DNA of 63,897 nucleotides, filler included, from Rhizaria sp. SCN 62-66 (taxonomy: Eukaryota), in assembly GCA_001724265.1 (NCBI GenBank). It is 3 parts of 3 records of this genome, joined end to end, with 100 filler letters (N's around TTAATTAATTAA, not from the genome) between each part and the next. Parts side by side here need not be neighbours in the genome. Positions count along the whole stretch, not along the records: positions 23,042 to 45,912 come from MEDY01000434.1; positions 46,013 to 63,897 come from MEDY01000479.1; 1 more part is not named here. One strand, 5' to 3'. This document shows, in pieces, positions 21,555 through 57,601 of this stretch. The notes beneath the pieces were generated by a model. The model was given only the letters and a program-made list of their open reading frames with translations, was not told the origin of the DNA and did not search any database. A program made the translations under genes and the position numbers. The first letter of the stretch is position 1. Each line of letters opens with the position of its first letter.

Positions 21555-21621
<67 letters not shown>

Positions 21622-22941: not shown

Positions 22942-23041
22942 NNNNNNNNNNNNNNNNNNNNNNNNNNNNNNNNNNNNNNNNNNNNTTAATTAATTAANNN
23001 NNNNNNNNNNNNNNNNNNNNNNNNNNNNNNNNNNNNNNNNN
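22942..23041. other. Artificial contig spacer (44 N + TTAATTAATTAA + 44 N)
   Basis: Six-frame stop linker flanked by N runs; identical to the spacer at 45913-46012. Confidence 0.97.
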
Positions 23042-35886: not shown

Positions 35887-37471
35887 TTACTTGTCCTCGC
35901 CCTCGCCGGCCTCGGCGTCGCTGGTGAGGATGGCGTTGGCGGCCAGCGCAGCCGTGAGCTCCGCACTGAGCTTGGCCTCGAGCGCGGCCTTGGCGGCGAC
36001 GGCCTGCTCGCTCAGCTGGCCCTTGCCGGCTGCGGCGGCGGCAGCGGCCTCGGCGGCGGCATCCTGCTCGGCCTGCGCGCGCGCGGAGCGGGCCTGGAAT
36101 GCGGCGAGCGCGTGCTCAGTGGCCGCGGCCTCCTCCTTGACGGCGCGCGCCTCGGCATCGGCGCGCACCGAGTCGAAGTAGGGGTGCGCGAGCGCCTGTT
36201 TGGCCGTGAGGCGCTGCTGGTGGTCGAGCACAAGCACCTTGGACAGCAGGTCCAGCGCCTCGGGGCCCGCCAGCGCGCGGTTGGCGTCGGTCACGTACTT
36301 GGTCCACTTGCGCGGCGCCACCTCGGGGCCCAGCGCGGCGACCGCGGCCGCGGCGTCGGCGTCGACCTCGGCGCTGTACTTGGTCAGGTACGCCTTGTAC
36401 GCGTCCGTGCCGGCGAGCTTGACGATCTTGGCAAGCTGGTCGGCGTTGTCCTTGCCCTATTGTTGTTGTTGGAGTAAGAACAAAGTATAGCATAAAAGAG
36501 AGTATGATGAGCGTATATCCATATGTTAAGAAAAGAAAGCATGACATATGAACGAGGATGACACACTTGCACTGAATAATAACTTGAGGAGTCATAGCTC
36601 ATGGAGGTATCTGCAAGGTAGCGAATGAACTGCTTCGCTTGGGACGTACCTGCAGGAGGGGGTGGACGCGGAGGACCATCTCGGCCATGACACAGCCGAA
36701 GGACCAGAGGTCGAGCGAGTAGTCGTAGTCCTTCATACCAACGAGGAGCTCGGGACCCTTAAAGTAGCGCGACGCGACGCCGAGGTTGTACTCATGGCCG
36801 GGGTGGTAGAACTCGGCGAGCCCCCAGTCCACGAGCGACAGCACGCGGTTCTTCGGGTCAATCATCACGTTGTGCGGCTTGACGTCGCGGTGCATGACGC
36901 CGTTGCCGTGCGCGAAGTCAAGCGCGCGCAGCAGCTGGTACAGGTAGAAGCGGCAGTCGGTGTCGGTGAGCGTCGGGTACAGCGTCTTGAAGTCGACAGA
37001 GTCGGTGTGGTTCAGCACGAGGCACACCGTCTTGGAGACAGAGTCGCGGACAACGTCGCGCAGCTGCGCCACGTTGGCGCCGCCGCGGATGCGCTCCAGG
37101 ATCTTGATCTCGCGCTGGATCTTGAGCTTCTTGACGGGCTTGAGAACCTTGATGACGACGGCGTCGGATGAGGGCTCATGGACGCCCGCGAAGACCTCGG
37201 AGTACTTGCCGCGGCCAATCTTGCCCGTAACGGCGTAGTCGTCCATGGGCGACCAGAGCGGCTCGAAGCTCTCGTAGTCCCACATGCCGGCGTTGGCGGC
37301 CGTGTTGACGTCGGCGTAGACGCGCGACTGCGACGCGTTCTTGCTCGACGGGCGGGCGAAGAGCGCGCGCGCGGGGGCAGAGAGCACAGAAGCGGGAGAA
37401 GAGCGCAGCAGGGGGAAGGGCATGGGCGCGCCGCGGGCGGCCTGCACCAGCCGGTTGGCCGAGCGAAGCAT
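35887..37471 (-). CDS. Casein kinase II alpha-like catalytic subunit with an N-terminal presequence; exons 37471-36650, 36456-35887; 463 aa
   Basis: Motifs [57 protein letters not shown] and GKDNADQL...[13 protein letters not shown]. Phase-0 GTACGT...TAG intron; TAA stop. Confidence 0.93.
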
Positions 37472-38174: not shown

Positions 38175-39878
38175 ATGGAGGCTGCCGTCCGCGTCTCCGC
38201 TCTTCCTGACGAGGAGCGCTTTGTTGCTTTTAGCGCGCTTGCCGAGCAGTTCATCCTGGCCTCTGACGCGGCGTCGCTGCGCGCCCTCGCTACCCACTTG
38301 CTGACGGTGGAGATCAACAACTCCTTCTCGCGTAACTGCATCCTCAACGAGCTCATCGTCGACATCTGCAGCAAGGTCAAGGACTCGGACGAGAAACTCG
38401 ACGCAAACCTTGACCTGGAAGACGCCGTCGACTTTGCCCGCGCCGTCGCCGCCGCGCTGCACCCCTTAAACGCAGAGTTCCCCGAAGCTTTCTTCGCGGC
38501 GGCCGACTTGCTCTCGGCCGCGCTCCAGGGGCTCGAGCGCTGGCGCGACGCCGCTGACGCTAAGGCCGACTACGCCTTCCCCGTGGACACCTCTGTGCCG
38601 CCCATCGAGCGGCTGGAGTGGGCCCTGGACGCTGCTGGCTTCTACCTCAAGAGCGCCCCCGAGCCCACACTCCCTGCAACTGCAAACGCCAACTCGACCA
38701 CAAACTCATCTCAAGCGAGCTCTGTTTCGCCGGCCGCGCGCTCCGCGTCCACCCGCGCGGCATCCTCCGCGTTCTCGATTCTGGCCCAGCGCGCGACGCC
38801 GCTGCTGAGGACGGTCCACGCCGCGTCCGCTGCCGCCGCCGCCGCCGCCGCCAAAGCGCCAGTCAACACGCCCGCACACATCAAGGCCTCGGCCGCGGCG
38901 GCCGCACTCTCTGCTAAGTCCGTCGCCGCATAGCATCGGCTTGATCTCTACTTTGCGCAGGCTGCCGAGCGGCTGGAGCGCCCCGCCGACGCCGCAGACC
39001 GGTACTTGTCCGTGTTCTCGCGGCTCCAGGGTCCTCAGTCCGCGGCCGTGGGGCTCGGCGCTGCGACTGCCGCGGGCGCGCGCGCCGCGCTGGCTGCGGC
39101 CGCGGTCAACGCGCTCGCCACGCCCGTGGGGCCCCGGCGCGCGCGCGTGCTGGAGGCCGTTGTGCGCGCGCAGGGCTGGGAGAGTTTGCCAGCGTCTACC
39201 TTGCTCCTCCGCACCACCAATACCAGCGCTAGTACCGTCGCAAGCTCTAGCGCCAGCGCGGGCTTTGCGGGTGGGTTCATCACTGAGCGTGAGCTCACCG
39301 TGCTCGAGTTGACCCCCGGGCTGCCGCTGGGGCTCTGCTTCGCGTCTGCTAACAATAACAGCAGCAGCAGCAGCAGCAGTAACAGCAGTAGTTCTAGCGT
39401 CACCAGCGGCGACGACACCGCCGGTCTGCTGCGGCGCGCCTCTCGCGAACACAACGTGTGCGTCGCGGCGCAGCTGTTTACCACCGCGTCGCTCGCGCGC
39501 CTCGCCACCCACCTGCTCGGCCTCGGCGCGAGTGCGGTGAACGCGGGCAGCGGCGCTGCGAACAACGGCGGCGGAGCTAGCAGTGCTGCCGCGACCGCGA
39601 CGGCCGCGTTGATCGCGGACCTGGTCTCCCGCGGCGCCGTCTCCGCGCGCCTGGACGAGGCCGCTGGCTTCGTCCGTTTTCCCGTGCTGCCCCCCGCGGC
39701 CGCGGCGCCCGTCGCCGGCGCAGAAGGGCTCGAGAAGGGTTCTTCCTCCAGCGGCGCTGAGCAAAGCACCGCCATGCATGCTGAGAGGGTCAATGTCGTG
39801 CAGAAGTGGCGCGAGGGGCTCGGCGCGCTGTGCGAAGAGGTTGATGAGGTTCTGGCGCTTGCGCTTACCGCTGTGTGA
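38175..39878 (+). CDS. Divergent PCI-domain protein resembling COP9 signalosome subunit 4; one 567-codon frame with an internal TAG at 38931-38933
   Basis: The track ORFs 38175-38933 and 39006-39878 are in the same frame, separated only by one TAG. CSN4-like motifs: AADRYL, ATPVGPRRARVL, LRRASREHNVCVAAQLF, ALIADLVSRGAVSARLDEAAGFVRF, KWREGLGALCEEVDEV. TGA stop. Confidence 0.75.
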
Positions 39879-40206
39879 AGACGCAATTCGTCGCTCTAAC
39901 GATTTACCGATGATACCTAGAACATGTTGTCAGGGCCTGTTTGTAACATTGTCAAGCCAAACCAATACATTATTGAAATATTATTGAAATATATGTTCTT
40001 TTCACTCATCATGTCCCAGTTACAAGTGTTAATGCTGTGAATAATTGTAAATAAAGTGCTTATTAATGTATTCTGAGCAACTGCACGTGTTGCTTTGCAT
40101 GATTATGAGTGTCATGGCCCTACACTGTGACACCGCATGTGTTAACTGTTGACTAATGTTGTCGTTTCTCTTGTTGCTCGCAGGAACGTGCGTGTGTGAG
40201 TCACAC

Positions 40207-41342
40207 TCACACTGTCACGGGCTGGTCGAACCCCTCATCATCATACGAATGATGCTGCTGCTGCTGACCGTTGCCATTGTGCTGCTGCTGTAGTTGCTGC
40301 CGACTGCGACTGAGGCTTTGGTTGTTGTTGTGGTCGTCAACAAAGCCTTCGTTGTCGTAGCCATCGTTGTCATACGCAACAGCACCGTGGCCGTGATCGT
40401 TCTCATAGCCGTCATCGTCGTAGTTGTCATAACTGCTGTGCTGCTGCTGTTGCTGTTGCTGCTGCGGCTGCTGCTGACTCTGATGTTGCTGCGGCTGCTG
40501 TGTCACCCGCTTCTGAGGCGTCTGCTGCGGAGTGCGCCGCTGCTGCGGCGGCGCCTGCGACTATGGACGGCGCGCACTATCACTCTCACCGTGACTATTG
40601 CTGCCTCCGGCGCTAGCGTTGTTGCCGTTCTCCTGGTCCTGGAGCGCGGCCTGGAGAAACTGGATCTTTTTCTCCAGCGCAGCCTCCCTGTCGCGCAGCA
40701 GCGCCTCCTCCGCCTTGGCCTGCGCCGTCTTGACCGCGACCGCCTTCCGCTCGCGCTCCTTCTGTCGCATCACGCGCAACAGCTCCTGCTCGCGGCGCAT
40801 GACGTCGCCCAGCCCCGCGCCGACCAGCGCGCGGCCCGCGCGGCGCGTCTCGGCCCGCTCCACGCGCGCGCGCTCGTTCTCCTCGGCCGCCACCAGCGCC
40901 TCACGCGCGCGCCGCTGGCTCGCCTCGGTCTGCTCGCGCACGCGCCGCTGCGTCTCGGCTAACGCCTCCGCGCGCGCGCGCTCCGCCTCGGCCGTGCGCG
41001 CCGCCGTCACGTCCGCGCGCCGCTGCGCCACCTCCAGGTCGTGGGCCTCCTTGCGGCGGCGCGTCTCCTCACCGCGGCGCTCGGCGTCGTCGGCCTGGCG
41101 CCGCGCCGTGTCCGCGCGCTGCAACTCGCGCTCGGCGATGCGCTGGCTCGCGAGGTCGTCTTTGGCACGCACCTGCGTGTGCTTGAACAGGGCCAGCTTG
41201 GCCTCGAGCAGCAGGCGTCGCTGCAGGTGCTTCGGCCGGCCCTGAACGGTGTCGCGGCGCAGCCAGACCGAGTTCGGCTCGGGGGGCTGAACCTGGCTCA
41301 GCCGCTGGCTCTGGCTCAGCTGCTGCTGTGACTGAATGTTGT

Positions 41343-41375
<33 letters not shown>

Positions 41376-42542
41376 CCCCGTCAGCGCTGGCGTGGCTGCC
41401 GTCAGTGAACGCGTCGTCGTTGTAGTCACCGTTGTCCGCAGCCTCAGCGCTGTGAGGCTGCGACTGTTGTTGAGACTGATGCTGCGCGGGCTGGCGGCCA
41501 CTGCTGCCGCCGGTGTTGACCGTTGCAGCACGACTGCCACCGCGGCTGCTGCTGCTACCGCTGCCGTGGTTACCCGCCTTGTCGCTGCCGTTGCCGCTGC
41601 CGCTCGAGTCAGCGCCAGCAGTGATCGAAGCAGCCTTATCAAGCGGCGCGCGGTACAAGCGCTCCCAGGGGCCCTGGACCTGCCCTTGATGATTCTGACT
41701 CTGACTCTGGTTCTTGTTGCTAGTGTGTCGGGCGCTCTCACTGCCGTTGCGTCCAGAGCTGTAGCTGCGGCTGTAGCTGTAGCCGTACGCGCTGCTCGTC
41801 ACAGGTGCAGTGCGGCCGCCGCCGGACATCAGCTGCTGTTGTTGCTGCTGCAAGCTCCCCTGCTGCTGCGCCGCCGAGAGTGACTGCGCATGTTGTTGCT
41901 GCGGTTGCTGCGAATGCGGCGCGGGCTGCTGCGGCGGCATGGCGGCGAGCCCCCAGGCCTTGGTCGACGCGTACGGCGACTTGTACCCGGGCTGGTCGGG
42001 GCGCGTTGCGCGATACGGCGCCACGCACGCTGCCGCGGACGTGAAGGCCTTGGAGGCGTCGGAGCGCGGGGGCGCCTCGTGCTGTCTACGCTCTCGCTCG
42101 TGGTAGGCTGCGTACTCGTCATGGTGCAGCTGGCGGCGCGCGCGCACTTCCTCGTCCTCGCTGTCCTCGCCGTCGCCGTAGTAATCGCCGCGGTAGCAGT
42201 CAGCTTCACCGTTCTCGTGCTCGTGCTCGCCGTGGCCGTTGTTGCCGTGCGCGGCGCCAGCGGAAGCAGCGCCAGCAGCAGCGTCAGCATTGGTATTCTC
42301 AACATGCTGGGCCGTGGGCGAGCCCACCGCAGCCACCGAGTGATCCGCCGAGTGTTCGGGGGCCACGGCGGCGACCGACGCGCTCTTGTGCAGTTGCGCA
42401 CGGCTCTGACGCTGGCTCTGCGGCTGGCTGTAGGGCTCGTTAAGGTTGTGCAGTCGCGCCTGGCTCTGGTACTGGCTCGGTGACCGATCCGGATCGTCCC
42501 CGTACATGCTTTCGTTGTAGCTGTCGTCGCGGCTGTCGTAGC

Positions 42543-42583
<41 letters not shown>

Positions 42584-43606
42584 AGATGCTGCTTGTTGTT
42601 ACTGTTGCGGTCGACAGGACGGTCGTCGACGTCGCCGTGCAGGTTGGCGCAGGGGTCGTGGGGCTTTTGACCGCCGGTGTTCCGCCGCTGTTGCTGCTGC
42701 TGCGGGTCGCGGTCTCGGTCGCCGTTGCGGGACTTGGAAGAAGGTAAGCCGCCGGGGGCCGTGCTCGCGAACTGCTGCTCACGCTGCTGTTGTTGCTGTT
42801 GCTGTTGCTGACGAGACTTAAGCTTTTGACCACGCTGCTGTTGCTGCTGTTGTTGCTGCTGGGACTGGCGGTGTGCGGGCGGCAGCGACGACGGCACAGA
42901 GCCGTCGCCCTCATGCCCCTGCCCCTGCTCCTGTCCCTGTGGCTGACCCTGACCGTGCTCCTGACTGTGGCCCTGTTCGTGCTCGTGCTCGTCGCTGTGC
43001 CGCGACGAATGCGACTGCTGCTGAGACTGCGCCTGTGCCTTGTTCCCGCTGGACGACGCCGTGGCATTGCGCAGCACGCGCGCGTACACCTTGTTCACCG
43101 CGGGCAAGTCCTGCCGGAGCCCCTCAGCCTCCTCGAGCTCGCTCTTGTGGATCTCTGCCAGCGCCTGCGACCGCGCCAGCAGCAGCTGTCCCTTGCGCTC
43201 GCCCGCGTCGCGCCGGAGCGCCTCCCTGCGCAAGAACTCATCCTCGCGCGCGCGCCGCTGATCCTCCTCCTGCTCCTCGCGGGCCCGCCGCGCCGCAGCC
43301 TGGCGTCGCTCGCGCTCGCGCCGCTCCTGCTGGCTGCGCTCGGCTGTGAGCGCGCGCGCCTCGGCCACACTCGCGTCCCCGGCGCGCGCGCGGGCCTCGA
43401 CCTCGGCGCGGCGCGCCTCGCGGTCCTCGCTGTGCGCCTGCAGGTTCGCCGCGACGCGCTGCAGCAGCCGCTCGCGCGCGGGCGAGCCGGGGCGCGCGGG
43501 CGAGCAGTGCCCGTCGCCGTAGTGGCCGTCGTCGTCGTAGTCAGAGTACTCGTTGTTGCTGTGGTGGCTGCCGCCGGTGCTGTTAAACGACCGCTGCTGC
43601 TGCTGC

Positions 43607-43643
<37 letters not shown>

Positions 43644-45291
43644 GAGAGTGCCCTCCGTTATGGTAGCCGGTGCTGCGGGCGGAGAGAGCGCCGGAGCGCG
43701 CACGCGACTGCGGGGCACTGCTGAACCCACTCTGAGTCTGAGCCTGACTGTGCCCCTGCCCCTGCTGCCCCTGTTGCGGCTGCTGTTGCTGGTGGTTTTG
43801 CTGCACTTTGCGCATGCGCGCGCGCTCCTTGTCGACCTCTGCCCAGCGGCGGCGCACGAGCAACTCGCGGTCGTCGGCCAGCCGCGCCATGAGCGCGTCG
43901 ACCGTAGCCAGCGCTTCGGCGTGCGAACGCTGCCGCTGTCGGAGCGCCTCCGCGGCCGCGGCGTACTCGTCCTCCTCCTTGGCGAGCTGCTCGCTGTACA
44001 TCGACGCAACGGCCGCAGACTGCGCGGACAGGTCGTCACTGCGGGCCGCCACGGCGGCGTTGTGCGCCGCGATGGCGTCCTTCTCCTCCGCCAGCTTGGC
44101 CAGCTCGGCCGCGGCGACGGGGTGGGTGCTGTCGCCGCCGCAGCCGTTGCCGCTGCCGCCGGAGGGGCGGGACGCGGGGCGCCCGCGCGCGCTGGGTTTA
44201 TCTTTATCGCGACTGGGTTCTGGGTTGTTGCCGTTGGGCTTATTGCTGGTGTCGTCTTCGTAGTGTTCGTTAGCGTATTCGTCGTCGCCGTCAGCGGCGG
44301 CGTCGCCGCGACTGCCGTTGCTGGCCTCTGCGTTGATGCTCGACTGCGTGGCGCCCGCGTCCGCGCTGTTGTGCGCGCGAGTGCCGTTGTTGTTATCGTT
44401 AACAGCAGGCGAAGGGTGAGTGCGCGCCAACTGGGCTTGAACTTGCGACTGAGACTGAGAGCGTTGCTGTTGCCTCGCAGGTTGTTGCTGCTGTTGCTGC
44501 TGTTGCTGCTGCTGTTGCTGCTGTTGGGGTCGGGGCTGTTGTGGCGGCCGCGGCTTCTGCTGTTGCTGCTGCTGCTGCGGCTCTGACTGTTGTTGCTGGT
44601 TGCTGCCAGTCACAGACCGCTGCGCATGTCTCGGAGTCTGTTTGGGCGTCTGCGACGGAGACGCGTGCGGCGGCGGCGACTGAGCCCGCGACTGTGCCTG
44701 CAACCGCGCCTGCAACTGCGAGCCCTGCGGCGGGGGCGACGGGGACCGAGTGCGCGTGCTGCCAGCGGCGGTGGCGGCGGCGACGCGCGACGGCGACGGC
44801 GACCGCTGTTGCTTGTTAGAGCTCCGCGAGGGGGACACGGAGCGGTGGCCAACCTTGGGCGACGGAGACGGAGACCGGGAGCGCGACTGCGGCTCGGGGG
44901 ATCTCGACCCGCGCGCGGGCGCCGCTGGCGCAGCAGCAGCGTTGGACGCTGTAGCAGTGCGCGTGTTACCGGGCGTTCTCGTCGCGGACGCTGCTGCTGC
45001 CTCGCGCTCGCGCAGCAACATCTCGGGGCTCGACGCGCGCGTGGCGTGGCCGCTGGCGCTGTAGTCCATGTCTTCCGCACCGCCAGACTCGACCACGGTC
45101 TCCAGCACGGCGCGGCGCGGGTCGTGCCAGGCCTCGCGGTCGTCGCCCGCGGACGGCGCTCCCTCGGGGCTGCCGCTCTGGCCGGCGCGGTCGTCGGGGG
45201 AGCCGGCGTGGGCCTGGGACGGCGCGGAGGCGTCGGGACCGGCGTCGGGGGACGCGGGGTTACCCGCTGGAACGGAGGCAGAGCCACCCAT
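40207..45291 (-). CDS. About 1694-aa Gln-rich coiled-coil protein with a possible N-myristoylation motif; internal TAG at 40563-40561
   Basis: Starts MGGSAS (MGxxxS) and has three E/R/A-rich helical blocks. The frame continues 117 codons past the TAG with the same Q/H/D/Y composition (SQAPPQQRR...YDDDGYEND) to TGA at 40209-40207. Confidence 0.8.
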
Positions 45292-45749
45292 AAACGTAGA
45301 GAGACGGGCGGCCCAACTGTGGGGGGAAAAGCAAGCGGAGGAGCGAAGGTTTCACGCGTGGGATCGAGAACGCAAGAATCTTCGGAGTAGACAAGAAAAT
45401 AAAAAGTTTTAAGAATTATTGTGAGATGCACGAATACAAAACACCTCGACTTATCCGTAACTCCGTTCAAAACACATATCAACGTCTATTTACGCTCTAA
45501 AAATGAGTAACAAGTCACATGAACACCGTCCGTTTCTCACTGCTCTGCACACTGTGGCTCTGTCTGCTCCGGACCGACTCGCAGGTCAGGCTACGCCTTG
45601 ACGACGTTTATACAGTGCGCGCGGCGTAGTTTGACATTTTAGATGTTATAAAGAGTTGATTCATGTGTTGTATAAGTTAAGACTGATGTGTGGATAGATG
45701 AATGGCTGAAGCTTTGTATTCCCAGAACGACCTACATAATACGGGAAAT

Positions 45750-45912
45750 TTACTCGTCGTCGCCGGCGTTGCTGCGCTTCTTCTTGCCCTTGTCCTTCTG
45801 GGTGGCACGAAGAGTCTTGCGCTTGTTCTTGGTCTCCTTGCGGAGCTTGCGGGTGGTGGCACCAGCAGCCTCAGCAAGCTCCTGACGGACGAGACGGAAC
45901 TTGGGCTCGACG
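45750..45912 (-). CDS. RPS24: C-terminal fragment of 40S ribosomal protein eS24, truncated by the contig edge
   Basis: VEPKFRLVRQELAEAAGATTRKLRKETKNKRKTLRATQK...DDE* matches eS24 EPKxRLxR...RKQRKERKNR. TAA stop. Confidence 0.85.
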
Positions 45913-46012
45913 NNNNNNNNNNNNNNNNNNNNNNNNNNNNNNNNNNNNNNNNNNNNTTAATTAATTAANNNNNNNNNNNNNNNNNNNNNNNNNNNNNNNN
46001 NNNNNNNNNNNN
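45913..46012. other. Artificial contig spacer (44 N + TTAATTAATTAA + 44 N)
   Basis: Same structure as 22942-23041. Confidence 0.97.
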
Positions 46013-46113
46013 GGAAAACGAAGTGTGTATACACAAGAAACGCCACCTTTAAATCGCGACCGGCAAAAGCTGTCGACTGGAATTTTATGCAGAATGTCGA
46101 CGGTAACAGCAGC

Positions 46114-46971
46114 TCAAGCGACGACGCACTCGCAGGCGTTGCGGCTATGCCCCGCGGTCTCGACGGGCTCCTCGCGCAGCACGACGTGCATGACGATGCG
46201 CGGCGCGCCCATCGCGACGGCCCTGCTGACGGGCGGGAGGTCCTTAAGCAGCGTCTGCATGCCGTCGGGGACGCTCGGGTCCACCAGGCGCGCGCCCAGC
46301 AGCAACACCTGCAGACAGCCGGGCCCGCGGCCGTCGAGCGCCACGGGAGGCTCGGCGGCGGCGAAGGGCCAGTCCGCGTGGAGCCGCGCGACGAGGTCGC
46401 CCACGGTCGCCGTCTCGAGAGGGAAGTCGGCCTCGTGCCGCAGGCGTTCGTAGTAGGGGAACAGGAAGTGGCAGTGCAGCAGCGCCGCGGGCGAGGCAGT
46501 CTCGGTCTCGTTCTCGGCAGAAGCAGCAGACGCAGACGCAGACGCGGTCGCATCAGCCGTATCAGATCCAGCAGTGATGTCGGCGGCAGGCGGGGCGGCC
46601 GCGGGGGCGGCGGCGGGGACAAGTGCGGGCGAGCCCTCGGTGCCGAGGGCGGGCGACAAAGCCGCAGAGGTTGCAGGAGCAGCAGCAGCAGCAGCGGCAG
46701 TGGCAGCACTTGCCTTGGCTCCGGAGGAGTTGGCGTCGGAGTAGTCAGCCACGACCGCGATCGCAGCTTTGGCTGTTGCAGCGGCGGCCGCGGCGACTGT
46801 CGCAGGGTCGGCGTCGGTGGAAAAGGCGGCGGAGTACGCGCCCGTGGACTTGGCGCCGGCGTGCGCAGCAGCAGTCGCTGCAGTCGCAGCATTCGCAGCA
46901 TCGGTCGAAGGCGAAATGGAAGTCAAAGGAGACTCTGCCGCGGCGGGCGGGGCGGCTGCGGGTTGAGACAT
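46114..46971 (-). CDS. Membrane-anchored ubiquitin-fold (MUB/UBL3-like) protein with a long Ala-rich N-terminal extension; 285 aa
   Basis: TATVGDLVARLHADWP...LLGARL...VMHVVLR followed by a C-terminal CECVVA (CaaX plus upstream Cys). First ATG is at 46971; TGA stop. Confidence 0.75.
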   Translation of the reverse strand: MSQPAAAPPAAAESPLTSISPSTDAANAATAATAAAHAGAKSTGAYSAAFSTDADPATVAAAAAATAKAAIAVVADYSDANSSGAKASAATAAAAAAAPATSAALSPALGTEGSPALVPAAAPAAAPPAADITAGSDTADATASASASAASAENETETASPAALLHCHFLFPYYERLRHEADFPLETATVGDLVARLHADWPFAAAEPPVALDGRGPGCLQVLLLGARLVDPSVPDGMQTLLKDLPPVSRAVAMGAPRIVMHVVLREEPVETAGHSRNACECVVA

Positions 46972-47295
46972 TGTGGGACGGGACAGCAAAGGCGCGATGC
47001 AAGTGGCTGGGACAAGGGACAATGCGGTGGCTGAGACGTTGGTGCGGCTGCTGTAGCGATGGGACGGGCAGTGACGAAGGCGGAGACGAGGAGCGAATAT
47101 CTGGTGAGCGATGACGACGATGTGGTGGGGTTCAAGAAAGATGATATAAGACGTGCATTTGTCCGTCAGCGCAAGAACCATTTCCGTTAAATACTGTAAT
47201 TACTATTTTGTGTATCATATTAAAATATTTCAAGCTTAAAACCTCTCCTCAACTCTTGTTGGCTGAATTCCTTTACCGCACCACAGAGTCTCTCG

Positions 47296-49068
47296 ATGAG
47301 CGACCCCAAGGACGACCTGCCGCCGCCGCTGGAGGACCTGTCTTCCGTGATCGCGCAGCGCAAACAAGCGCGCGCCGAGGCAGAAACGGTGCCGGTGTTG
47401 CCGCGCGTGCTCGACGCCGACGAGGACACGTTGCACGCCGCGCGCGTCGCCGCCATCCAGGCCGCGATTCAAAAGCCTGCAGCCGTTACGGCCCCTGCCG
47501 CGGCCGCCAAGCCCCCGGCGAATGCGAGTGCGGCTGCGGCGCAGACCCCCGCGGCGACCAGTGCGGCCAAGCCGAAGCCCGCAGCCCCCGCGGCGGCCAC
47601 GGCGGCTGCGGCTGCGGCGCAGGACGACGACGACATGTTTCCTGGTCTGCGCGCCGCCTTCCTTCGGCGGCAACAGGCGCAGAAGAAAGCGAAGGCCGCC
47701 GCCGCCGCCGCTGGCTCTGGGACTGGGACTGCGACGACTACGAGTGCGACAAGCAAGAGTGTTCCTAAGCCTGCTGCCGCCGCTACAAACGCCACCAAAC
47801 CGACGTCTGCGTCTGCCTCTGCCTCTGCAGCGGACGCGGACATCCCCTTCATCCGCGGCGACCCGAAGGCGGCCGCGACAGCCGCGGCGGCGGGCATGCA
47901 GCCGGCGCTGGCGGCGGCCGTGGGCGCCTCGGCGCGCGACGGGTGGCTCACGGGCGGGCTGCTGGGGGCGGTCCGCGGCAGCGAGGCACTCATGCGCGGA
48001 CTCGCCGACCCGCGGCTTGCGGCCGCGGTCGCCGAGATCCAGCGCGACCCCGCGCGCGCGATGGCCAAGTACAAGGACGACAAGGAGGTTACAGACTTCT
48101 TCCAGAGCTGGGTCCAGTTCATGGCTCAGCAGGCCGGCGCGCCAATGACGCCGCAGTCGACGGAGAGTGCCAGTGTCAGTGCTAGTAAGGGCAAGAGCAC
48201 TGGCGCTGCGGCGACTTCAAGCACGAATTCAAGTGCGAGTACCGGCGCGGGTACCGACAGTTCAAGCACGAGTACTACCAAGAGTGCCAGTGTGAAGTTG
48301 GACGTGCTTTCAGCGCGCGCCGAGGCCGCCGCGGTCGACGACGCTGCGGGCTTTACCATCCGCCCCCGCACAGTCACCAAGACTGGCGCCGCGGCCGCGG
48401 CGGCGACGACGACAGGGACTAGCAGCCGCCACGCGAGTGGGAATGGGAAGAGTTCGATCAGCATCGTCGAAGTCGACGACGACGAAGCTGGTCTCGACTC
48501 CATGGGCACGGACAAGAGCAAGGGCCAGGGCCAAGGCAAGGACGCGGAGGGCAGCGGCTCTAGCTCCAAGATCCAGCTGCTTGACGACGACGACGCCGCT
48601 GCCGCTGCCGCCGCAGCCAAGAAGCAACAGCAGCAGAAGCAGCAACAGAAGTCAGTCAAAGGCAGCGCCAGCGCCAGCGCCGACAGCGGCCAAGACGACG
48701 GCGGCCTGTCTGTGGTGCGGACGCGGGCGCGGACGGCGACGCCCGCGGCCGCCGCCGCCGCCGCCGCCGCGGGCGCCGCGGCCGAGGCCGACAGTCTGGA
48801 CTTCAACGGTCGGCGCGTGCCGCGCGCGCAGCTGGCGGCGTGGCTTTCGCATCCGCCGCTGCGCGCCGCGCTGTCGGACCCCGCGACGGGGCGGCTGCTC
48901 GACGCCATCAGGCAGGACGAGACCCGCTTCCCGCTCGCGCTCAAGGACCCGCGCGGGCTGTTGCTCGTGCGCGCGGGCATTCTCGCAGTGCCGGAGCGCT
49001 TCGCGGCCCTCGCCCAGCAAGCCCTTGCCCAGCAGCAGCAGCAGCAGCAGGGCGGTGCCGGTAAGTGA
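47296..49068 (+). CDS. STI1/HOP-DP repeat-containing protein, 590 aa
   Basis: LMRGLADPRLAAAVAEIQRDPARAMAKYKDDKEV and LRAALSDPATGRLLDAIRQD...LKDPR resemble STI1 DP motifs. TGA stop. Confidence 0.7.
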   Translation: MSDPKDDLPPPLEDLSSVIAQRKQARAEAETVPVLPRVLDADEDTLHAARVAAIQAAIQKPAAVTAPAAAAKPPANASAAAAQTPAATSAAKPKPAAPAAATAAAAAAQDDDDMFPGLRAAFLRRQQAQKKAKAAAAAAGSGTGTATTTSATSKSVPKPAAAATNATKPTSASASASAADADIPFIRGDPKAAATAAAAGMQPALAAAVGASARDGWLTGGLLGAVRGSEALMRGLADPRLAAAVAEIQRDPARAMAKYKDDKEVTDFFQSWVQFMAQQAGAPMTPQSTESASVSASKGKSTGAAATSSTNSSASTGAGTDSSSTSTTKSASVKLDVLSARAEAAAVDDAAGFTIRPRTVTKTGAAAAAATTTGTSSRHASGNGKSSISIVEVDDDEAGLDSMGTDKSKGQGQGKDAEGSGSSSKIQLLDDDDAAAAAAAAKKQQQQKQQQKSVKGSASASADSGQDDGGLSVVRTRARTATPAAAAAAAAAGAAAEADSLDFNGRRVPRAQLAAWLSHPPLRAALSDPATGRLLDAIRQDETRFPLALKDPRGLLLVRAGILAVPERFAALAQQALAQQQQQQQGGAGK

Positions 49069-49861
49069 GACTGGCTGCGACTGTGTGCAGACGGCGGACC
49101 GAAGAGTGTGTGTGTGTTTGCGCATTTGTGTGTTGTGTGGTCAGGGTGGATCCTTTTGAGGAGAGATGTGTACGTATATATTTATTGAACTTTTTTATGT
49201 GATCACATCACCGTATCATCACACTCTTTTTTTTAGTCGACGTGGTTACTTGTACCGATACAATAGTTTAATTTTCGTCATCAAAGTTGTCTCGACTATG
49301 AACAAATGAGCAATGAGCACTGTAGTAGTTTTGCTGAAGTGTTGAATCGAACAATGTACAAAATTGAGTGTTTGTGTGTATTAACCCCCAGCTGTGCATA
49401 CGTACACGGCGGAAGCGAATGACTGTTCAAGTGAACAAACAAACGGAAAGAAAACAAAAGAGTGAAAATGGAACAAGAACGAAAACAAGAAGAAAAGGCA
49501 GGAGAAAAGACTCCGGACAGAAATAGCTAGATAGCAAGAGGATGTTTTCAAACAAAACAAAACAAAACAAAAACAGCATGAGTATCCATCACCCTCAAAA
49601 AGCCCAACAATAATAACAAACATCAACCTCGCAGAGATACCAGCACCGTTGTCATAAAAATGCATCGTGGTCAGCTGCCTTGTGGTCAGCAAAACTAAAG
49701 TGCTTCGTACAATCCAATGCAACTGATCTGGTCTGATCTGAGCGTCCTTGTGTTCACGTATCGTTGGACTTAACGGTGGCTTAACTTATATTGACTGGGC
49801 TTAGCAGCTTAGCTTCGCAGCAATAGCGGCTTAACTTTGCGGCCTAACTTTGCGTCTTAAC

Positions 49862-49909
49862 TTAGCGCCTGACGAAGCCGCGGTTGCGCGCGCCGATGCC
49901 CCCGTTGGC

Positions 49910-49941
<32 letters not shown>

Positions 49942-51409
49942 CGCCGGCGCCGGCCGCGCTGCCGGCCGAGCTGCTGGCCCCGGGCGCCTGCCCCACAAGC
50001 CCGATCGGCGTGTTACCGCCGCCCGCCGCGCCCGCCGCGCCCGCCGCGCCGGCCGAGACTGTGCCCGCGGCGCCGGAGCCCGCGGCGGCTGAGCCCGCGG
50101 GCGCGAAGGAGGAGGCTGAGAGGGCGGGCCGCCAGAAGGGCGGGCGGTCAGCGCCGCCCGCGCCCCCCGCGCCCGCACGGTCGGCCTCGGCGGCCGAGCC
50201 GACGCCCGCGCCCGCGGTGGACGCGGAGGCGGAGGCGGAGGGCGCGGCCGCGGGCGGCAGGCGCATGAGCGAGCCCCCGCCCGGGGTCTGATAATGGGTC
50301 GGCGAGTACAGCCCGCCGCCGCCGCCGCTGCCGTCGTCGTCCTGGCCCGGGCCGCCGAGCCCGCCCAGGCCCCCGTAGGCCGGGTGGAAAGGCGCCGCCG
50401 CGCGCGCGGCCGCCGCGCCGCCGGGCGTGGCGCCGCCGGAGAGGCCCTGGCTCTGGAAGCCGCCGCCGCCGTGGTGGTGTTGCTGCGAAGGGTGGTGCGG
50501 GCCGTAGGGGGAGAAGCCGCCGGCGAGGCCGCCGAGGCCGCCGCCGAGGCCGCCGCCCAGCCCTCCGCCGCCGCCGCCGCCGCCGCCGAGGAGCAGGCCG
50601 CCGCCGCCGGCCGCGAGCTGCGCGGCCGCGTGGGCCGAGTGAGACGAAGGCGTGAAGATGGGCGCCGAGGCCGAGACCGTGGTGTTGGGCAGCGCGGAGC
50701 CGCCGGGCGTGGCGGCCACGGCCGAGGCGGCGCCCGCGGGCGCGTGCGTGGGCGAGTCGTCCTCTGGCGGGTTGATTGACCAGATGATGCGCGACGAAGT
50801 CGTCAGCAGCGCTCCGTTGCGCACCTTGACCTCGCCGGGGTTGATGAACATCACCTGGTCGCGCACGTGCGTCAGCAGCTTCTCAACGTCGGGCAGCGCC
50901 GCCGCGGCCGCGGCCGCCGCGAGCGCGGGGTCCATGCGCAGGTCGAACGAGAGAGAGCGGAAGCCGCTGCCGCGCATGATCTCGCCCGGGTACCAGTGGT
51001 CGCGGTAGCGGCGCCGCAGCTCCTCGCGCAGCGCGGCCTCAAACTCGTCCAGGCGCTCCACCTCGGGGTGCTTGTTGCGGATCTGCGTCGCCCACCACTC
51101 GGCGGCGTCTGCAGGCACGAGTACAATGTGCAGGTTTGCATATGCAATTGGTATCGATCAAGCAAGGACAACAGAGAGCGAGGGGAAGACGTGGGTAGAG
51201 GTGAGACGGGGACAGAAACGGGGCGTTCGAGAGATAGAGAGATAAGGATGGCTGCAGCACAGCGAACGAGAGCGTGCGCGCGCGTGCACGGTGGCAGAGG
51301 CGACTAACGACGTTGACGCGAGGTATAAAAATTGATAGTGTAGGAACTGGGAGGACGAGAGAAACGTACATCTAACCTCCGTCTCAAGCGGGGTGTGCTT
51401 TGTGTCCAT
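49862..51409 (-). CDS. BTG/Tob (APRO) family protein with a Gly/Ala-rich tail; exons 51409-51370, 51108-49862; 428 aa
   Basis: Box A-like RYRDHWYPGEIMRGSGFRSL and box B-like MFINPGEVKVR. SASAPIFTP resembles a PAM2 core. GTACGT...CAG intron in phase; TAA stop. Confidence 0.88.
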
Positions 51410-52624
51410 GGTGTGCGGGCCAAGTTGTGTCAGAGAGGGCAGGCACGAGTCGGAAAAGCGTCAAACTGCGCCGCAGCACCCCGGAAGAGGCAAGTTGTTG
51501 TGGGAGGGCGAGGGCAAAACAGCTTCGATGAGATTTGACGTCGAAAACCCAGGGGAAAATCACCGTCACTAGAGGCGAGAGCAATGAAAATAGATTCTAG
51601 AAAGGCGCAAATGCTCAAACCGATCACTCCTGTAATCGCAGTGTTCACACACAAGACACCACGCAACGACGAAGAATGTGTGGACAAGATCGCCCCGAAA
51701 GCCAATCCGAAAAGATTTGATTTTTTGGGAACCGGCTCTGTTCCACAGCCCGCACTACATCACGACCATAAACTGTCCCATATGGACCATTAAGCTTGCC
51801 CAACGCACAATTGAACGTGTTATTGCGTATATCCTGGTGATTTTTATATTTGGTCATTCTTGCATTGCTATTCAACCCAATTTATATCTCACACATGAGC
51901 CTCCCCCGACTCTTCGTTCGTTGCACCACAGCGTCTGCATGACTCTAAGTTGCACGCGCACGCGTACTCTCCGCGGATGTGTCTTGCTACACCTTTGCAC
52001 TTGAAATATTAGCATTGTCTTGATTTTATCAATCACTTTTGAGGCTTTGCTAGGTTTTGAAGAGCGGTGACCGCTCTCAGTCGCACTGCGGCGCCGTCTG
52101 TCAATTAGTAACGCTTTGTTCGCCACTCCGGTCGCAGACTCCGCCAGACGCCGTGACGCCTTCTCTGCAAACAGGCGGCAGTGAAACAATCGCGGCAGAC
52201 CTTGGAAGCACTGATTTCATGCATGCTTGCTCGTTGCTGCTTCTGCACCAGGTTGAGTCTCTCCCTGTGTTAATCGCTAACATTGCACATTGCCTACAAA
52301 GCAACACTGTCACGAGACGCACATCATGCTCAATTGGTCTAAAAAATTGTCTATATTGCGAAAACTAAGCGATTCTATCTTGTTTTTGTGGGCCTCAGCG
52401 CTTCAGTCAGCGCCCGCCTTGGACGGCAGCGACCGTGGAGAACGGGATCGTCACACAGGACGATGGCAGTCTTTTTAAAAGGAACTCTCTGACTTAAAGT
52501 TCATCGTAACTTATCTTAACACTTTTATAAATTGTTACAAAACAACTTAAATTGTACAATTAATTTGTTTTGTGCGCCGTCTGCAGCCACTGGCTTCGCC
52601 CTAAGCCAGTCCAGGTTCCTTGTG

Positions 52625-55600
52625 ATGGAAGAAGCTCGCTCGCCGCTTCGTTCTCTTAACGGCCGCGCGCCTCGCTCCAGTCCCGGCTCAACCAAGTCGC
52701 GTCCGCCTCCTCCCGCTATGTCTCAGCCGCCGCAGTCCTCGGAAAACGACGAGAACCACTCCGAGCGAAACCGCGCGATCCTGCCGCTGTCGCTCTTCTC
52801 GCCCCCGCGCGGCGGCGACCCCGCGCTGTCCCCGCTCTCGGCGCTCTACCCGGCCCTCCCGCCCGGCGCCGCCGCGCCCGCAGACACACCTGGGCCCGCT
52901 GCTGGCTATGTCTCGCAGGCGTCCTGTGCGCTGACAGTTGACGCCTTCGCCGACGCCGCGCACACGGAGTCGCGGCTACTGCCCGTCCTCCCCACGCCCA
53001 CCGCGGCCACGGGCACCGCGGCGTCGGCCGCGTACGGTGCGGCGCCGGGCTCTGCGCCTGGCTCTGCGCGCGCGTTTGCGCCCATTGGTACGCCGCGCCT
53101 GCTCTCGCGGCCATCCCTCTCCAGCTCAAGCCTCAGCGCCTCCGCCAGCTCGAGCGCGGTCCAGTCCGCGGTGCACTCTGCGGTGCACTCGGCCATCCAC
53201 TCGGCGGCACCGTCGGCCCCCGCGTCCCCAGGCATCGGCGCGCTGCTGGCGCCCGCCGCGGCCGCGCTGCACACGCCCTCCGCGGCGGCGCCGTCAGCTG
53301 ACGGCGCGCAGTCCCTGTCGCAGTCCCTGTCACAGTCGCTGCAGCAGGCGATGCTCACACAGCCGCAGCTCCGACTGCAGCCGCAGACGCTGTTTCCGTC
53401 GCAGCAGACGCCGCTAGGGTCGCTGCAGCAGCAGTACGAGCAGCAGTTTTTGCAGCATAAACAGCAACAACAGCAACAACAACAACAGCAGCAGCAGCAG
53501 CAGCAGCAACTTTTGCAGCTGCAGCAGCCGCTGTTGTTTCCTCCGTCGACTTCATCATCACTGCCGACAGCGACAGATGTTGACGTCGGGCTGCTGAGTC
53601 AGCAGCTGGCTGGCGGCTTAACTTTCCACAGCGCAGTATTTCCCTTTCCTTCGCCCTCGACAGCTACAGCAGCAGCAGCAGCAGCAGCAGCATCAGCATC
53701 AGCGTCAGCGTCGGACAACACGAACGCTCACACTGGTGTCGGCGCCGCGTTTTCGTTTCTGCCGCAGCAGTCTCAAACGCCTGCAGCAGCGAATGCGACA
53801 CTCGCGGGCACGCAGGCAGCAGCAGCAGCAGCGTCGCCGATTACGCCGGCGCAACAGCTGCAGCAGCTGCAGCCGCGGCAGCAGAAGCAGTCGCGCTCAC
53901 GCTCGCAGTCTTCGCAGTCTCAGGCTTCGCAAGCGCAGTCCCAAGCCTCTCAGTCGCAGTCCTCGCAGTCGCACCAGTCGCGACGGTCCCGGCACTCGCA
54001 CGAGGCGCAGCCGGAATCGCAACAGCCCCAGAAACAGCAGCCCCGCGAAGAGCGGGAGCGCGGGCAGCAGCCAGGGCAGCAGCAAGCGCAGGCGCAGACG
54101 CAGGGGCAGACGCAGGGGCAGCGACTGCGGCAGCGGCAGCGAGGGACGACGGACACGGGCTCCGACACGGGCGCTGGCGCGGGCGCGGGCGCTGGGACGT
54201 GGCCGGACGCTGGCGCGATGAGCACGAGCAGCCGCAGCAGCCGCAGTAGCCGCAGCAGCAGGAGCAGCAGGAGCGGGGGCGGGGGCGGGAGCGGCAATGG
54301 CAACGGCAGCGGCAGCGGCAAGACTGAGGGCAGCAAGCGCAGCGGCGGCGATCGCCACGCTGCTCACGGTCACACTGCTCACGGTCATCACCCTGCTCAC
54401 GGTCATCACCCTGCTCACGGTCATCACCCTGCTCACGGTCACCACACTGCGCACGATCACACTGCGCACGGTCACTCGAGGCACAGTCCCCGCAGCCAGG
54501 CTAGCCGCCACGCCCACGGTCACGCCCACGGTCACGCCCACGGTCACAGTCAAGCTTCCGACTACAGCCACGGCCACGGCGCTCACTTCGCCGCCGCGCC
54601 CCCGGCCGGGCCGCGCAGTCGCAGCGGCGACTGGCCCCCCGAGTTCGACCTCGTCGACTCGGCGGGGCTCGAGTCCGCGGCGCTGGCCGCGAGCACACAC
54701 GCGCACGGCTCGAGCGCGGGCGCGGAGCTGCACGACACCAGCATGGGCACCGATGGGGGCCTGAGCGCGGGCGCGGGCAGCAGCCTCAACGTCAGCGGTA
54801 GCAGCGTCAACGTTAGCGGCAGCAGCGGCCTCAGCCACGACTCGGCAGCGTACGGCCGCACGCTCGACCACAGCCAACACGTCCGCGGTCACGGTCACGG
54901 CCAAGGCCACGGCCACGGCCAGGGCCAGGACCAGGGGCTCGGTCTGAGCGTCGGCGGCAACTGGCTCTGGGACATGCCGCTGTCGATGCCGTCGCCGTCG
55001 TTGGCGCAGCCCCTGCTGGCCCAGGCGTCACTGCTTTCGCACCCGCAGCAGCTGCCCGGCGCGGCCTCGCTGCTCCCGGTCATTCCGGCCTCTTTGTTCG
55101 ACGAGTCGCCGCGTCTCGCGATGGCACCGGCGACTGCGCCGGTGCCCACGATTGTGCCCGCGGCCGGCGACGTCAGCGGCCGCACCGCGCACCCCCCGTA
55201 TTCGCACTCGCACGGTCACGCGCACGGCCACGCGCACGGCCACGCGCAGCACGCGCACAGCCACGCCCACGCCCACGCCCACAGCCACGCTCAGCGGCCG
55301 CTCGCGCACGCGACCGGCGTCCAGGGGCTCGCGCACGCCGCGGCGTTTGTGCCCGCCAGCCTCCAGAGCCCAGCGCACGGCGGCCAGGGCTACAGCATCC
55401 AGCAGCAGCAGCAGCAGCCATCGCCGTCGTCGTCGGTGGTGCTCATGCGGCCGCCCCGCGCCGCGCGCCCCGGCCTCGACCACGGCCCCAGTCCCAGTCT
55501 GACTCTCGGACCCCGTCTCGGGCCCGGCCAGCAGGGCCCCGCGCCCAGCCCCTTCCCGCCGCTGCCCTCCTCGGGCGCTGGCGCTGCCGCCGGCGCTGGC

Positions 55601-57601
55601 GGTGGAAACGGCGTTGGCAGCGGGAGCTTAGGCGCGTTTTCTTTCTTCGCGCCGAGCCCGAGCCCGGCGAGCGCTACTGGAAACGCGAGCGCGGCTGCGA
55701 GCTCGGCTGCGAGCGCGAGCGGTGCCGCGACGCCGCTGCCCCTCGGCGCGGGCTCCAGCCGGCGCACGAGCCACGCGGCCGACGCGGCCGACGCGCTGCT
55801 GCGCGCGCTGGCGCTGCGCAAGGGGCTCGCGGGCCTGGCGGCCCTCGCGCACACCGCCGCGGACGGCGGCGCAGACGGCGGTGCAGACAGGGACGGGGAC
55901 ATGGACAGGGACAGTCAGAGCGCGAGTGTGAGTGCGAGCGTGCGCGAGGCGGCGCGCGCGGCGGCGCGGGCGGGGTTCCTGTACGTCGTCTCGGTGGTGC
56001 CCGGCTCGGCGGCTGCGCTGGGCGCAGCCAACAACGGGACCGTGGCCGGCCACGGCTACGACAGCGACGACTGTTACGAGGACGACGAGGACGACGGCGA
56101 CGACTACTACGCCGACAGCGACGGCGACGCGCTTGACTATGACGATGATGAGGAGCACAACTACGACATTGATCATGACGGCTTTGGCTACAATGATGAC
56201 GCCAACGACAACGATTACGACGGCGCAAGCTTCGGCGACATCGACACCGGTCCGCAAAGTCAAGGTGGCAGCTACAGCAAGAGCACTAGAGCCGGCGACT
56301 TCGACGGCGACGCCGACAACGCCAACTCGAACATCTCGAACATCTACAACGCTAACTCGCTCTCGCACAATGCGGGAGCAAGTGCGAGCACCAGTGCGAG
56401 CGACGCGGCGACCGTGGCGGAGCTACTGCGGGCCGTTGCGGCCGCGGAGACGACGGTAGCCGCCGCGCCCAGCGCCGCCGCCGCGGCCGCCGCGAGCGCG
56501 GCCGTTGCGGCGGCGTCGGCCGCGCTGGCGGCGCTGCCGCTCTCGCGCCAGGGGCTGCGGCCCGGAGACGTGGTGCTCAAGTTCGGCCGCCTGCGCGCGG
56601 GCGCGGGCCCCGGCGCGTGCGCGCACGGCGGCGACGGCGGCGACTTGTGCGGCTGCGTGCTGCGCTACGGCGGCGACTGGCGCGCTGTCGCAGGCTACGT
56701 CCGCGACCGGCCCGGCGTCGCCTTCGACATCGTGGTACGCGACGACAGCGAGCTGTGCGCAATATATCTTGTATATTGCCTTCGTTGACTTCACATATGT
56801 GAGTATATTTCAATCTTTTTCTTTATTTCGGTGTTGTTGATCCCCAATATGATCTGCTCATATCTTCGTCTCACTCGTCGCACTCGCTTACAACACTGTC
56901 TTGTCCCCACCCCTGTATTGCGCACGTAGCTGCTCCGCTATGCGCGGCCGCCGCCCTCGCTGGCTCAGCTGCTGTCGCAACCGTTAGAGCCGCAGACAGC
57001 CTCGGCCTCGCGCCGCTCGAGCCGTAGTCACGGCCAGCAGCAGCCGCAGCAGCAGCAGCAGTCTCGACAGTCTCGCGGCAGCGGCAGCGGCAGCGGCAGC
57101 GGCAGCGGCGGCGGCAGTGGCAGCGGCGGCGTTGACGCTGCGGCCGCCGGAGCGCGCCCCTTCTCCCGCTCGCGCTCGCGCTCAGGCTCGCGCTCAGGCT
57201 CAGGCTTAGGCTCAGGCTCCGGCGCGCGCGCGCAGCACGAGAGCAGTCACGCACGCAGCAATCATGCTCGCAGCGGCCACGCTCGCAGCGGCGGGGGCGG
57301 CGGCGGAGGCGGCGCGGCGTGGGCGCGGGCGGTGCGCGTGCGCGTGACGCCGCTGCGGTCCGCGTCGACGAGCTACGCGACAGCCGCGGCGGCGCGCGCG
57401 GGCGAGCCCTGCGACCCGAGTCCCGCGGCCGCGGCGCCGGGCGCGAGGCACGCGGGCGCGGCGGGCGCGCTGGGCTGCGTGCTCGCGGACTGGCCGCCCG
57501 CGCGCAAGACCGTCGACCTCATCGTGCAGTCCGTGCCAACCGCCGGGAGCGCGGCGGGCACGACCACCTCCATTTCTCAGCAATAGACGCCCCGGTTCTG
57601 A
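52625..57601 (+). CDS. Large low-complexity protein ending in a fragmented PSMD9/Nas2-type PDZ domain; exons 52625-56734, 56930-57601; internal TAG at 57584-57586
   Basis: PDZ pieces in the expected order: FLYVVSVVPGSAA, GLRPGDVVLKFG, AFDIV|LLR, VRVRVTP, GALGCVL. Phase-0 GTACGC...TAG intron. Ends SQQ(TAG)TPRF then TGA; under the standard code it would end at 57586. Confidence 0.7.
54375..54441 (+). repeat. 18-bp tandem repeat (CTGCTCACGGTCATCACC) x3.7 encoding AHGHHP units
   Basis: Three perfect copies plus a partial copy, read directly. Confidence 0.9.

Follow-up and report, generated by a model that had tools for sequence, protein, structure and literature searches.

In-frame UAG codons in a GC-rich wastewater protist: a candidate UAG-only change of the nuclear genetic code

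The DNA considered here, hereafter the window, is a stretch of 63,897 bases filed under Rhizaria sp. SCN 62-66 (GCA_001724265.1), in which three genes contain an in-frame TAG from which the reading frame stays open to a TGA. It is made of three contigs (1-22941, 23042-45912 and 46013-63897) joined by artificial spacers, N44-TTAATTAATTAA-N44 at 22942..23041 between contig 1 and contig 2, and a second one at 45913-46012 between contig 2 and contig 3. An earlier note on this DNA had proposed that UAG is a sense codon while UAA and UGA remain stops, and the TAG positions and open frames on which it was built were found again: 38931-38933 on the plus strand, open to TGA 39876-39878; 40563-40561 on the minus strand, open to TGA 40209-40207; and 57584-57586 on the plus strand, open to TGA 57599-57601. 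We find it likely that TAG is translated in this organism and, judging from homology on both sides of the codon, TAG is read as sense in at least one gene, that for subunit 4 of the COP9 signalosome (CSN4). The wider proposal, a general sense decoding of UAG with UAA and UGA terminating, seems on balance to be favoured.

The CSN4 gene (38175..39878, plus strand) is a single exon running from the ATG at 38175 to the TGA at 39876-39878, and would encode 567 residues if the TAG is read. By sequence reading, this TAG (38931..38933, plus strand) is codon 253 of the gene and falls between the N-terminal helical part and the PCI half of the protein, and the frame stays open for 314 codons past it, a segment homologous to the C-terminal half of CSN4. 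The open reading frame (ORF) is flanked by AT-rich sequence, and its ATG aligns to the first residue of the closest homolog. A further ATG, at 38088 (plus strand), is in frame with the CSN4 start, with TAGs at 38163 and 38172 in between, both of which were rejected as sense codons because they lie upstream of the CSN4 ATG. Under the standard code, 38088-38174 is a short upstream ORF that ends just before the CSN4 start; if TAG were sense and ATG 38088 were included in the mRNA, CSN4 would gain 29 residues absent from all homologs.

An exhaustive homolog search across 1.84 billion representatives recovered the two halves of this gene as separate gene-caller products, P0002 corresponding to residues 1-252 and P0001 to residues 280-567, together with ten more distant relatives. 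Nine of the relatives are full-length (360-453 aa) and were aligned, the tenth (P0009, 142 aa) being excluded as a fragment, and the position of the TAG is spanned by 9/9 of these full-length homologs. The family profile matched solved CSN4 chains with E 4.8e-83 and 1.6e-82, the paralogous Rpn5 following far behind (1.6e-29), and the single CSN4 sequence gave a weak match to Pfam PCI (E 0.091). On these matches we identify the interrupted gene as CSN4, with the N-terminal helical repeats and the C-terminal PCI domain predicted in one chain. The two halves were then compared separately with a profile of the nine homologs from which the query was left out (428 columns): the segment before the TAG corresponds to profile columns 9-179 (E 1.7e-29, probability 99.8) and the segment after it to columns 205-409 of 428 (E 9.3e-15, probability 98.4). 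By this measure, the pre- and post-TAG segments are collinear and complementary halves of one CSN4 protein. The only ATG in the 314 post-TAG codons sits near the 3' end (AMHAERV), and with no usable ATG after TAG 38931 the post-TAG half therefore cannot be made alone. Using a codon-usage log-odds table trained on the long ORFs of the window (11,113 codons), with their remaining five frames as background, we obtained a score of +0.28 per codon over the 314 codons of this half. As the homology of its two halves has it, TAG 38931 must be translated for CSN4 to be made whole, the alternative being a dead gene.

The second TAG (40561..40563, minus strand) was placed by sequence reading at codon 1597 of a gene for a long low-complexity protein with polyglutamine (polyQ) tracts and a coiled coil (40207..45351, minus strand), which comprises 1596 codons to the TAG and then 117 codons to the TGA at 40209-40207. 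The codon-usage score is positive over the whole length of this gene, and AT-richer sequence begins at the TGA. The segment after the TAG (40210..40560, minus strand), 117 codons in the same frame that are coding-like by codon usage, scores +0.61 per codon in frame (+0.39 without CAG and CAA) and has a GC content of 0.58; its other two frames score -0.21 and -1.55 per codon. As controls we took the 351 bases after each of 19 TAA/TGA stops, one of which was dropped as it ran into a spacer (n=18). In these 18 regions the gene-frame score ranged from -0.30 to -1.10, the best score of the three frames was never above -0.17, GC content was 0.36-0.50, and 1-53 codons preceded the first stop in frame. 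In view of its codon usage, GC content and open frame, TAG 40563 is probably translated. The sole relative of this protein, P0253, shares 55% identity with it along 220 coiled-coil residues, and the tail of P0253 after the coiled coil has 106 residues (acidic and aromatic), compared with 25 in the window protein if the TAG stops and 143 if it is read. Comparison of the post-TAG tail with the upstream part of the same protein by BLASTP gave a best E of 0.73.

The presence of these two codons in other sequence data was assessed over contig 2 (23042-45912) using assembled contigs from public runs; six studies have metagenome runs with this stretch, their samples being from bioreactors, wastewater and activated sludge. 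X2, a contig of another study, shows 0 differences across 38142-39345, and JGI contig L001 matches exactly along 38142-39387. Both include TAG 38931, which is therefore real DNA and not an assembly slip; the pieces of X4, a slightly different strain, among the matches listed give no cover over 38662-38955. TAG 40563 is included in JGI contig L002, identical over 39449-40575, and is unchanged in an X4 contig covering 40535-41292 (2 differences in 758 bases), which extends only 26 letters to one side of the codon. Where the earlier note proposed a check of read support at each TAG, assembled contigs show the codon at these two sites, X2 and L001 at the first and X4 and L002 at the second. The listed X4 differences in the two post-TAG segments are 2 synonymous third-position changes, one of them at 40219 in the post-TAG segment of the polyQ gene, and 1 Leu>Phe replacement, too few to weigh. 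X4 also has a 3-base insertion at 40252 (minus strand), within a CAG-rich stretch, which is a repeat-length polymorphism that keeps the frame.

Splicing was considered for both codons. There is no GTACG donor near TAG 38931, where the surrounding DNA is GC-rich, and the sole GT..AG span found there is of 43 bases and would break the frame. The candidate spans around the two codons measure 43, 29 and 35 bases, none a multiple of three (all by hand count). An intron was rejected as the explanation of TAG 38931 and TAG 40563, considering both the lack of such a donor nearby and the break in frame that these spans would cause.

The third TAG (57584..57586, plus strand) lies four codons before the TGA at 57599-57601, in the last exon (56930..57601, plus strand) of a gene starting near 52520, and could be either a real stop or a sense codon. 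The exon follows an AT-rich intron ending ...CACGTAG at 56929, and scores +0.215 per codon in frame, with the other five frames negative. After the TAG come ACG CCC CGG TTC TGA, and AT-rich 3' sequence begins directly after 57601 (GC 0.33 over 80 bases). No family or homolog was found for this gene. TAG 57584 is uninformative, as a plain TAG stop fits equally well.

Regarding the other two stop codons, 21 gene 3' ends were modelled in the window, 11 with TAA and 7 with TGA without any in-frame TAG, and in the other 3/21 a TAG comes first in frame, with a TGA as the following stop; the earlier tally of 11 TAA and 10 TGA was reproduced, if the three TAGs are read through. The Rab GTPase (Pfam Ras E 8.1e-40) has its TAA at 16800..16802 (plus strand), directly after ...CKC, so that the translation ends ...ATCKC, and the C-terminal CXC is a prenylation motif. 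For the ALDH16-type aldehyde dehydrogenase, with its TAA at 60864..60866 (plus strand), the alignment ends at most 4 residues (0-4) from the C-terminus in 5/5 homologs checked, and the TGA of CSN4 comes within 13 alignment columns of the ends of its homologs. COQ4 closes its last exon with a TGA at 20537..20539 (plus strand), and casein kinase 2 alpha (CK2alpha) ends in a TAA at 35887..35889 (minus strand), after a second exon at 35890-36456. Going by the homologous C-termini of Rab, ALDH16 and CSN4, TAA and TGA are real stops. No in-frame TAA, TGA or frameshift occurs in the 28 modelled coding segments (~14,633 codons), where TAG is counted 3 times, CAG 712 times and CAA 129 times, CAG being the commonest codon. 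Four further TAGs were discarded as sense codons: the one at 22337 is cut by an intron donor (TA|GTACGT), that at 31726 lies inside an intron, and those at 36459 and 56927 are both intron acceptors.

A number of observations weigh against reading UAG as an ordinary sense codon. Only two TAG codons are informative, and they are located on one contig, 1.6 kb apart, in convergent neighbouring genes; the occurrence on two separate contigs to which the earlier note appealed holds if TAG 57584 is counted, a codon that sits exactly at a gene end. The standard code gives 11 TAA, 7 TGA and 3 TAG (3/21), an ordinary share, and the argument that no gene needs TAG is accordingly circular. In-frame TAG (3/14,633) is ~25 times rarer than the 3.76 TAG per 1000 counted when these genes are read in their non-coding frames, and therefore looks like a stop codon. 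Since CAG is the commonest codon, a nonsense mutation in them would most likely be CAG>TAG. The sole TAG column that can be aligned is variable and holds no consistent residue. The search for a tRNA(CUA), also suggested at the outset, was carried out on the 64-kb window and found none (ARAGORN; Rfam gave nothing at gathering score). Neither of the two strong TAGs is bridged by the RNA contigs among the matches listed, which cover 37549-37941 and 39394-39686 (X7) and 38374-38672 and 39403-39781 (X5). The X2 contigs have 0 differences in all 8 listed pieces and may derive from the same clone as the window. The tail of P0253 showed no significant similarity to the post-TAG tail of the polyQ protein, with a local score of 49 that was reached by 145/2000 and 30/2000 composition-preserving shuffles. 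Finally, established reassignments use the codon far more, as exemplified by the rhizarian exLh with 384 UAG in 71 genes, a figure taken from the accessible part of PMC5304391.

Of the proposal that UAG is sense and UAA and UGA are stops, the homology of CSN4, the codon usage of the polyQ gene and the TAA and TGA at homologous ends hold, whereas the stop tally and the third TAG carry no weight. The 64 kb of the window are too little to separate a genome-wide reassignment from its alternatives, namely a UAG that is leaky or has two meanings, and a pair of nonsense alleles that are tolerated.

We regard as unlikely a dual or leaky UAG, which would terminate near 3' ends, as at 57584, and be read through internally or in particular genes; the route may be a suppressor or near-cognate tRNA without full reassignment. 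The great rarity of TAG in frame is in agreement with this explanation, and so is the position of TAG 57584, exactly where coding-type sequence ends and with a back-up TGA four codons on. However, CSN4 would need near-complete suppression for every functional molecule, and the bases after the three TAGs (CAT CGG; TCG CAG; ACG CCC) share no context, a shared 3' stimulatory context for programmed readthrough being absent among them. Nor do these contexts fit the readthrough motifs UAG-CARYYA and UGA-CUAG. Genetic codes that let context decide whether a stop codon terminates or is read as sense are known from Condylostoma, Blastocrithidia and Parduczia, as stated in the accessible text of PMC5304391, and a context-dependent sense/stop code also appears in the title of PMC4967479. 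The situation in the window resembles theirs in that an internal TAG is read and a terminal TAG could still stop; it differs in that their context-dependent codons, as far as the accessible text goes, are abundant in coding sequence, whereas here TAA and TGA never occur in frame.

It also appears improbable that the standard code applies and that all three TAGs are real stops. CSN4 would then be a recent nonsense allele (a young pseudogene or a truncated gene), the polyQ protein would have lost its last 117 residues through a recent CAG>TAG change, and the third gene would simply end in TAG. The normal share of TAG stops and the high frequency of CAG, which is one transition from TAG, are compatible with this explanation, as are the slow decay expected of GC-rich frames, in a window where long open frames are common even in antisense, and the possibly clonal origin of the X2 support. 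The COP9 signalosome is, moreover, dispensable in some eukaryotes. On the other hand, two disabling alleles among 21 genes, both of them TAG and with no TAA, TGA or frameshift in ~14,600 codons, would be an improbable coincidence. TAG 40563 is common to the X4 strain, which differs elsewhere; the post-TAG sequence is fully coding in character, with the few strain differences mostly synonymous or in-frame; and the tail of 106 residues in P0253 contrasts with the 25 that the window protein would retain. Removal or change of the TAGs in RNA, by U-to-C editing or by an unconventional short intron, would agree with the lack of RNA contigs bridging either TAG among the matches listed, but is very improbable, given that spans of 43, 29 and 35 bases are not multiples of three and yet both sides share a frame, that the definable introns are AT-rich, of ~120 to 240 bases, and mostly begin with GTACG, and that nothing in the window indicates an editing system.

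If UAG is a sense codon, glutamine is the leading candidate for its amino acid, at a little under even odds. In the nine CSN4 homologs the TAG column holds L, R, E, S, L, L, W, K and P, the closest homolog having L, and in the solved chains, as read from the printed HMMER alignments, it holds Q in human 6r6h_D and N in 9is6_D. The alignment of this TAG to a CSN4 glutamine, put forward earlier, thus survives for the human chain and for none of the nine homologs or 9is6_D, and the glutamine assignment as originally argued, from one variable column and sequence context, is not supported on that basis. The accompanying remark on glutamine-rich surroundings was borne out, two of the three TAGs having such a context. 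Glutamine is weakly favoured by this context, by CAG as the commonest codon and one transition from TAG, and by being the commonest outcome among the UAG-only cases in the accessible parts of the published accounts; we would put it forward as a tentative assignment. Leucine is kept as an unlikely candidate because the closest CSN4 homolog has it at the TAG column, and any residue other than these two is a possibility of intermediate standing. The only tRNA called by ARAGORN in the window is a 95-base tRNA-Thr(CGU) at 21851-21945 (plus strand), antisense within the open frame 21382-22293 (minus strand); it is probably a false call, Rfam finding none there at gathering score. In Pfam scans, no gene for the release factor eRF1 was seen among the window ORFs.

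As a mechanism, we propose that cytoplasmic ribosomes would insert an amino acid at UAG, this being a general feature of the nuclear code, and that UAG would be a very rare sense codon (~0.2 per 1000 codons). It would be read by a CUA-anticodon tRNA, whose most likely ancestor is tRNA-Gln(CUG), and eRF1 would have lost or weakened its recognition of UAG and kept that of UAA and UGA. The authors of PMC5304391, in the accessible part of that paper, argue for a tRNA(CUA) and a change in eRF1 for their own cases. Tentatively, the window could represent an early-stage UAG-only reassignment in a GC-rich protist from wastewater that is no ciliate, fornicate, rhizarian or green alga, but maybe an apusomonad-like obazoan. 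On such a reading, UAG may have nearly gone from coding sequence and now be reappearing as sense, mostly beside Gln-rich stretches.

Reassignments of UAG without UAA are few; those named in the accessible text of PMC5304391 and PMC11687900 come from one rhizarian, one fornicate, one green alga and several ciliates. UAG stands for Gln, with UAA and UGA kept as stops, in the fornicate Iotanema spirale, the ciliate Protocruzia tuzeti and two phyllopharyngean ciliate lineages (PMC5304391, PMC11687900; accessible text). As in these organisms, only UAG is found in frame in the window, there is no in-frame UAA or UGA, and UAA and UGA stand at gene ends; the predicted reader, a tRNA(CUA), is also the same as the one proposed here, as far as their accessible descriptions go. 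They differ, according to the same descriptions, in having many UAG at conserved Gln, compared with two informative codons and a far rarer UAG here. A further difference is that the DNA studied here has introns and is rich in GC, and the window offers no pointer to either a fornicate or a ciliate.

UAG stands for Leu in the sainouroid rhizarian exLh and in one phyllopharyngean ciliate lineage (accessible text of PMC5304391 and PMC11687900). The stops counted in exLh are 56 UAA and 15 UGA, with no UAG stop, in the part of PMC5304391 that is accessible. The window is like exLh in that the change would concern UAG only, that UAA leads among the stops (11 TAA vs 10 TGA with the TAGs read through), and that Leu stands at the TAG column in the closest homolog of CSN4. 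It is unlike exLh, at the usage given for that organism in the accessible text, in having 3 TAG in 21 genes, and in that Leu occupies a variable column in 3/9 homologs. In the green alga Scotinosphaera, cited in the accessible part of PMC11687900, UAG stands for Ser. The likeness to the window is that UAG is sense and UAA is kept as a stop, as far as that citation goes; the difference is that nothing here favours Ser, and the sole pointer to green algae is that the Atlas clusters near a P2X/EF-hand protein are mostly chlorophyte. A literature search returned no report of UAG reassignment in apusomonads and, by title or the start of the abstract among the papers listed, no wastewater eukaryotic metagenome-assembled genome with such a code, supplementary files lying outside the search.

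The DNA of the window is eukaryotic, with GC-rich exons (third-position GC ~0.8) and AT-rich introns and flanks, and with a COQ4 gene (Pfam Coq4 E 1.1e-52), in agreement with its first description as GC-rich and COQ4-bearing. Kinship to the rhizarian example, suggested along with that description, gained no support, the leads being an ALDH16 clade with apusomonads and BTG clusters from animals. In a quick single-gene tree search of ALDH16, in which most rows are unnamed, the window sequence and P0133 (91% identity) belong to a fully supported 19-row clade whose named members are limited to two apusomonads, Thecamonas trahens and Amastigomonas sp.; the other half of the tree contains the animals and bacteria. 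The nearest Atlas clusters of the BTG domain are animal (nematode, chordate), and together with the ALDH16 tree they give a weak lead towards Obazoa. For the P2X/EF-hand protein, the nearest Atlas clusters are mostly chlorophyte or Nucleocytoviricota (giant viruses). CK2alpha has its best named matches in plants (47-64%), Pedinophyceae (63%) and Lagenidium (61%), and is too conserved to place the organism. A trypanosomatid origin was rejected, as introns are present.

Relatives of ALDH16 at 91%, 76% and 73% identity occur in metagenomes, and close relatives of the organism are therefore present in public data. The metagenome scan returned only two short contigs (L001 and L002), both identical to the window. 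Scans of viral contigs with P2X and ALDH16 gave no match, and a scan of genome contigs with CK2alpha gave 67 kinase loci at 25-59% identity, which were bacterial, with no contig of a eukaryote among them. The closest relatives of CK2alpha (P0014, 74% identity) and of CSN4 (P0003, 46%) are each recorded on a contig of 10,544 bases, and the two genes, which occupy 35887-39878 in the window, may be neighbours in a related organism as well, going by the equality of these two figures only.

By Pfam and homology, the genes of the window include an RCC1-repeat protein, a P2X receptor fused to EF-hands, the Rab GTPase, a COMM-domain protein, COQ4, two protein kinases (one of them CK2alpha), a leucine-rich repeat (LRR) protein, CSN4, a BTG-domain protein and the ALDH16-type aldehyde dehydrogenase. 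The latter (58178-60866, plus strand) has two domains (Pfam Aldedh E 2.8e-169). The P2X-type ATP receptor and several EF-hand domains are encoded in one 752-codon ORF (11335-13593, minus strand), and a BTG/Tob-type anti-proliferative domain is encoded in a protist gene at 49862-51157 (minus strand; Pfam E 7e-15).

The donors of the definable introns are GTACGT (3), GTACGC (1) and GTAACT (1), one more being ambiguous between GTACGC and GTGAGT, so that most spliceosomal introns of the window have an unusual, near-fixed donor, GTACGT or GTACGC. The intron sites are 22337, 31781 and 36649 on the minus strand, and 26650, 56735 or 56809, and 20341 on the plus strand. These definable introns, AT-rich and ~120 to 240 bases long, interrupt genes that are otherwise GC-rich and have at most 1-2 introns each.

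If TAG is translated in this organism, annotation under the standard code would err wherever TAG occurs, and CSN4 already stands in gene-caller output as two separate "proteins" (P0001, P0002). UAG-only cases are informative about the discrimination of UAG from UAA by eRF1, and about whether a codon changes meaning by codon capture or through an ambiguous stage. A general sense decoding of UAG, if true, would add a further independent case, with very low codon usage and in a lineage without a reported one, and would be a useful example of an early stage. Should the early-stage reading be true, the organism would provide a natural snapshot of the codon-capture or ambiguous-intermediate step in the evolution of the genetic code.

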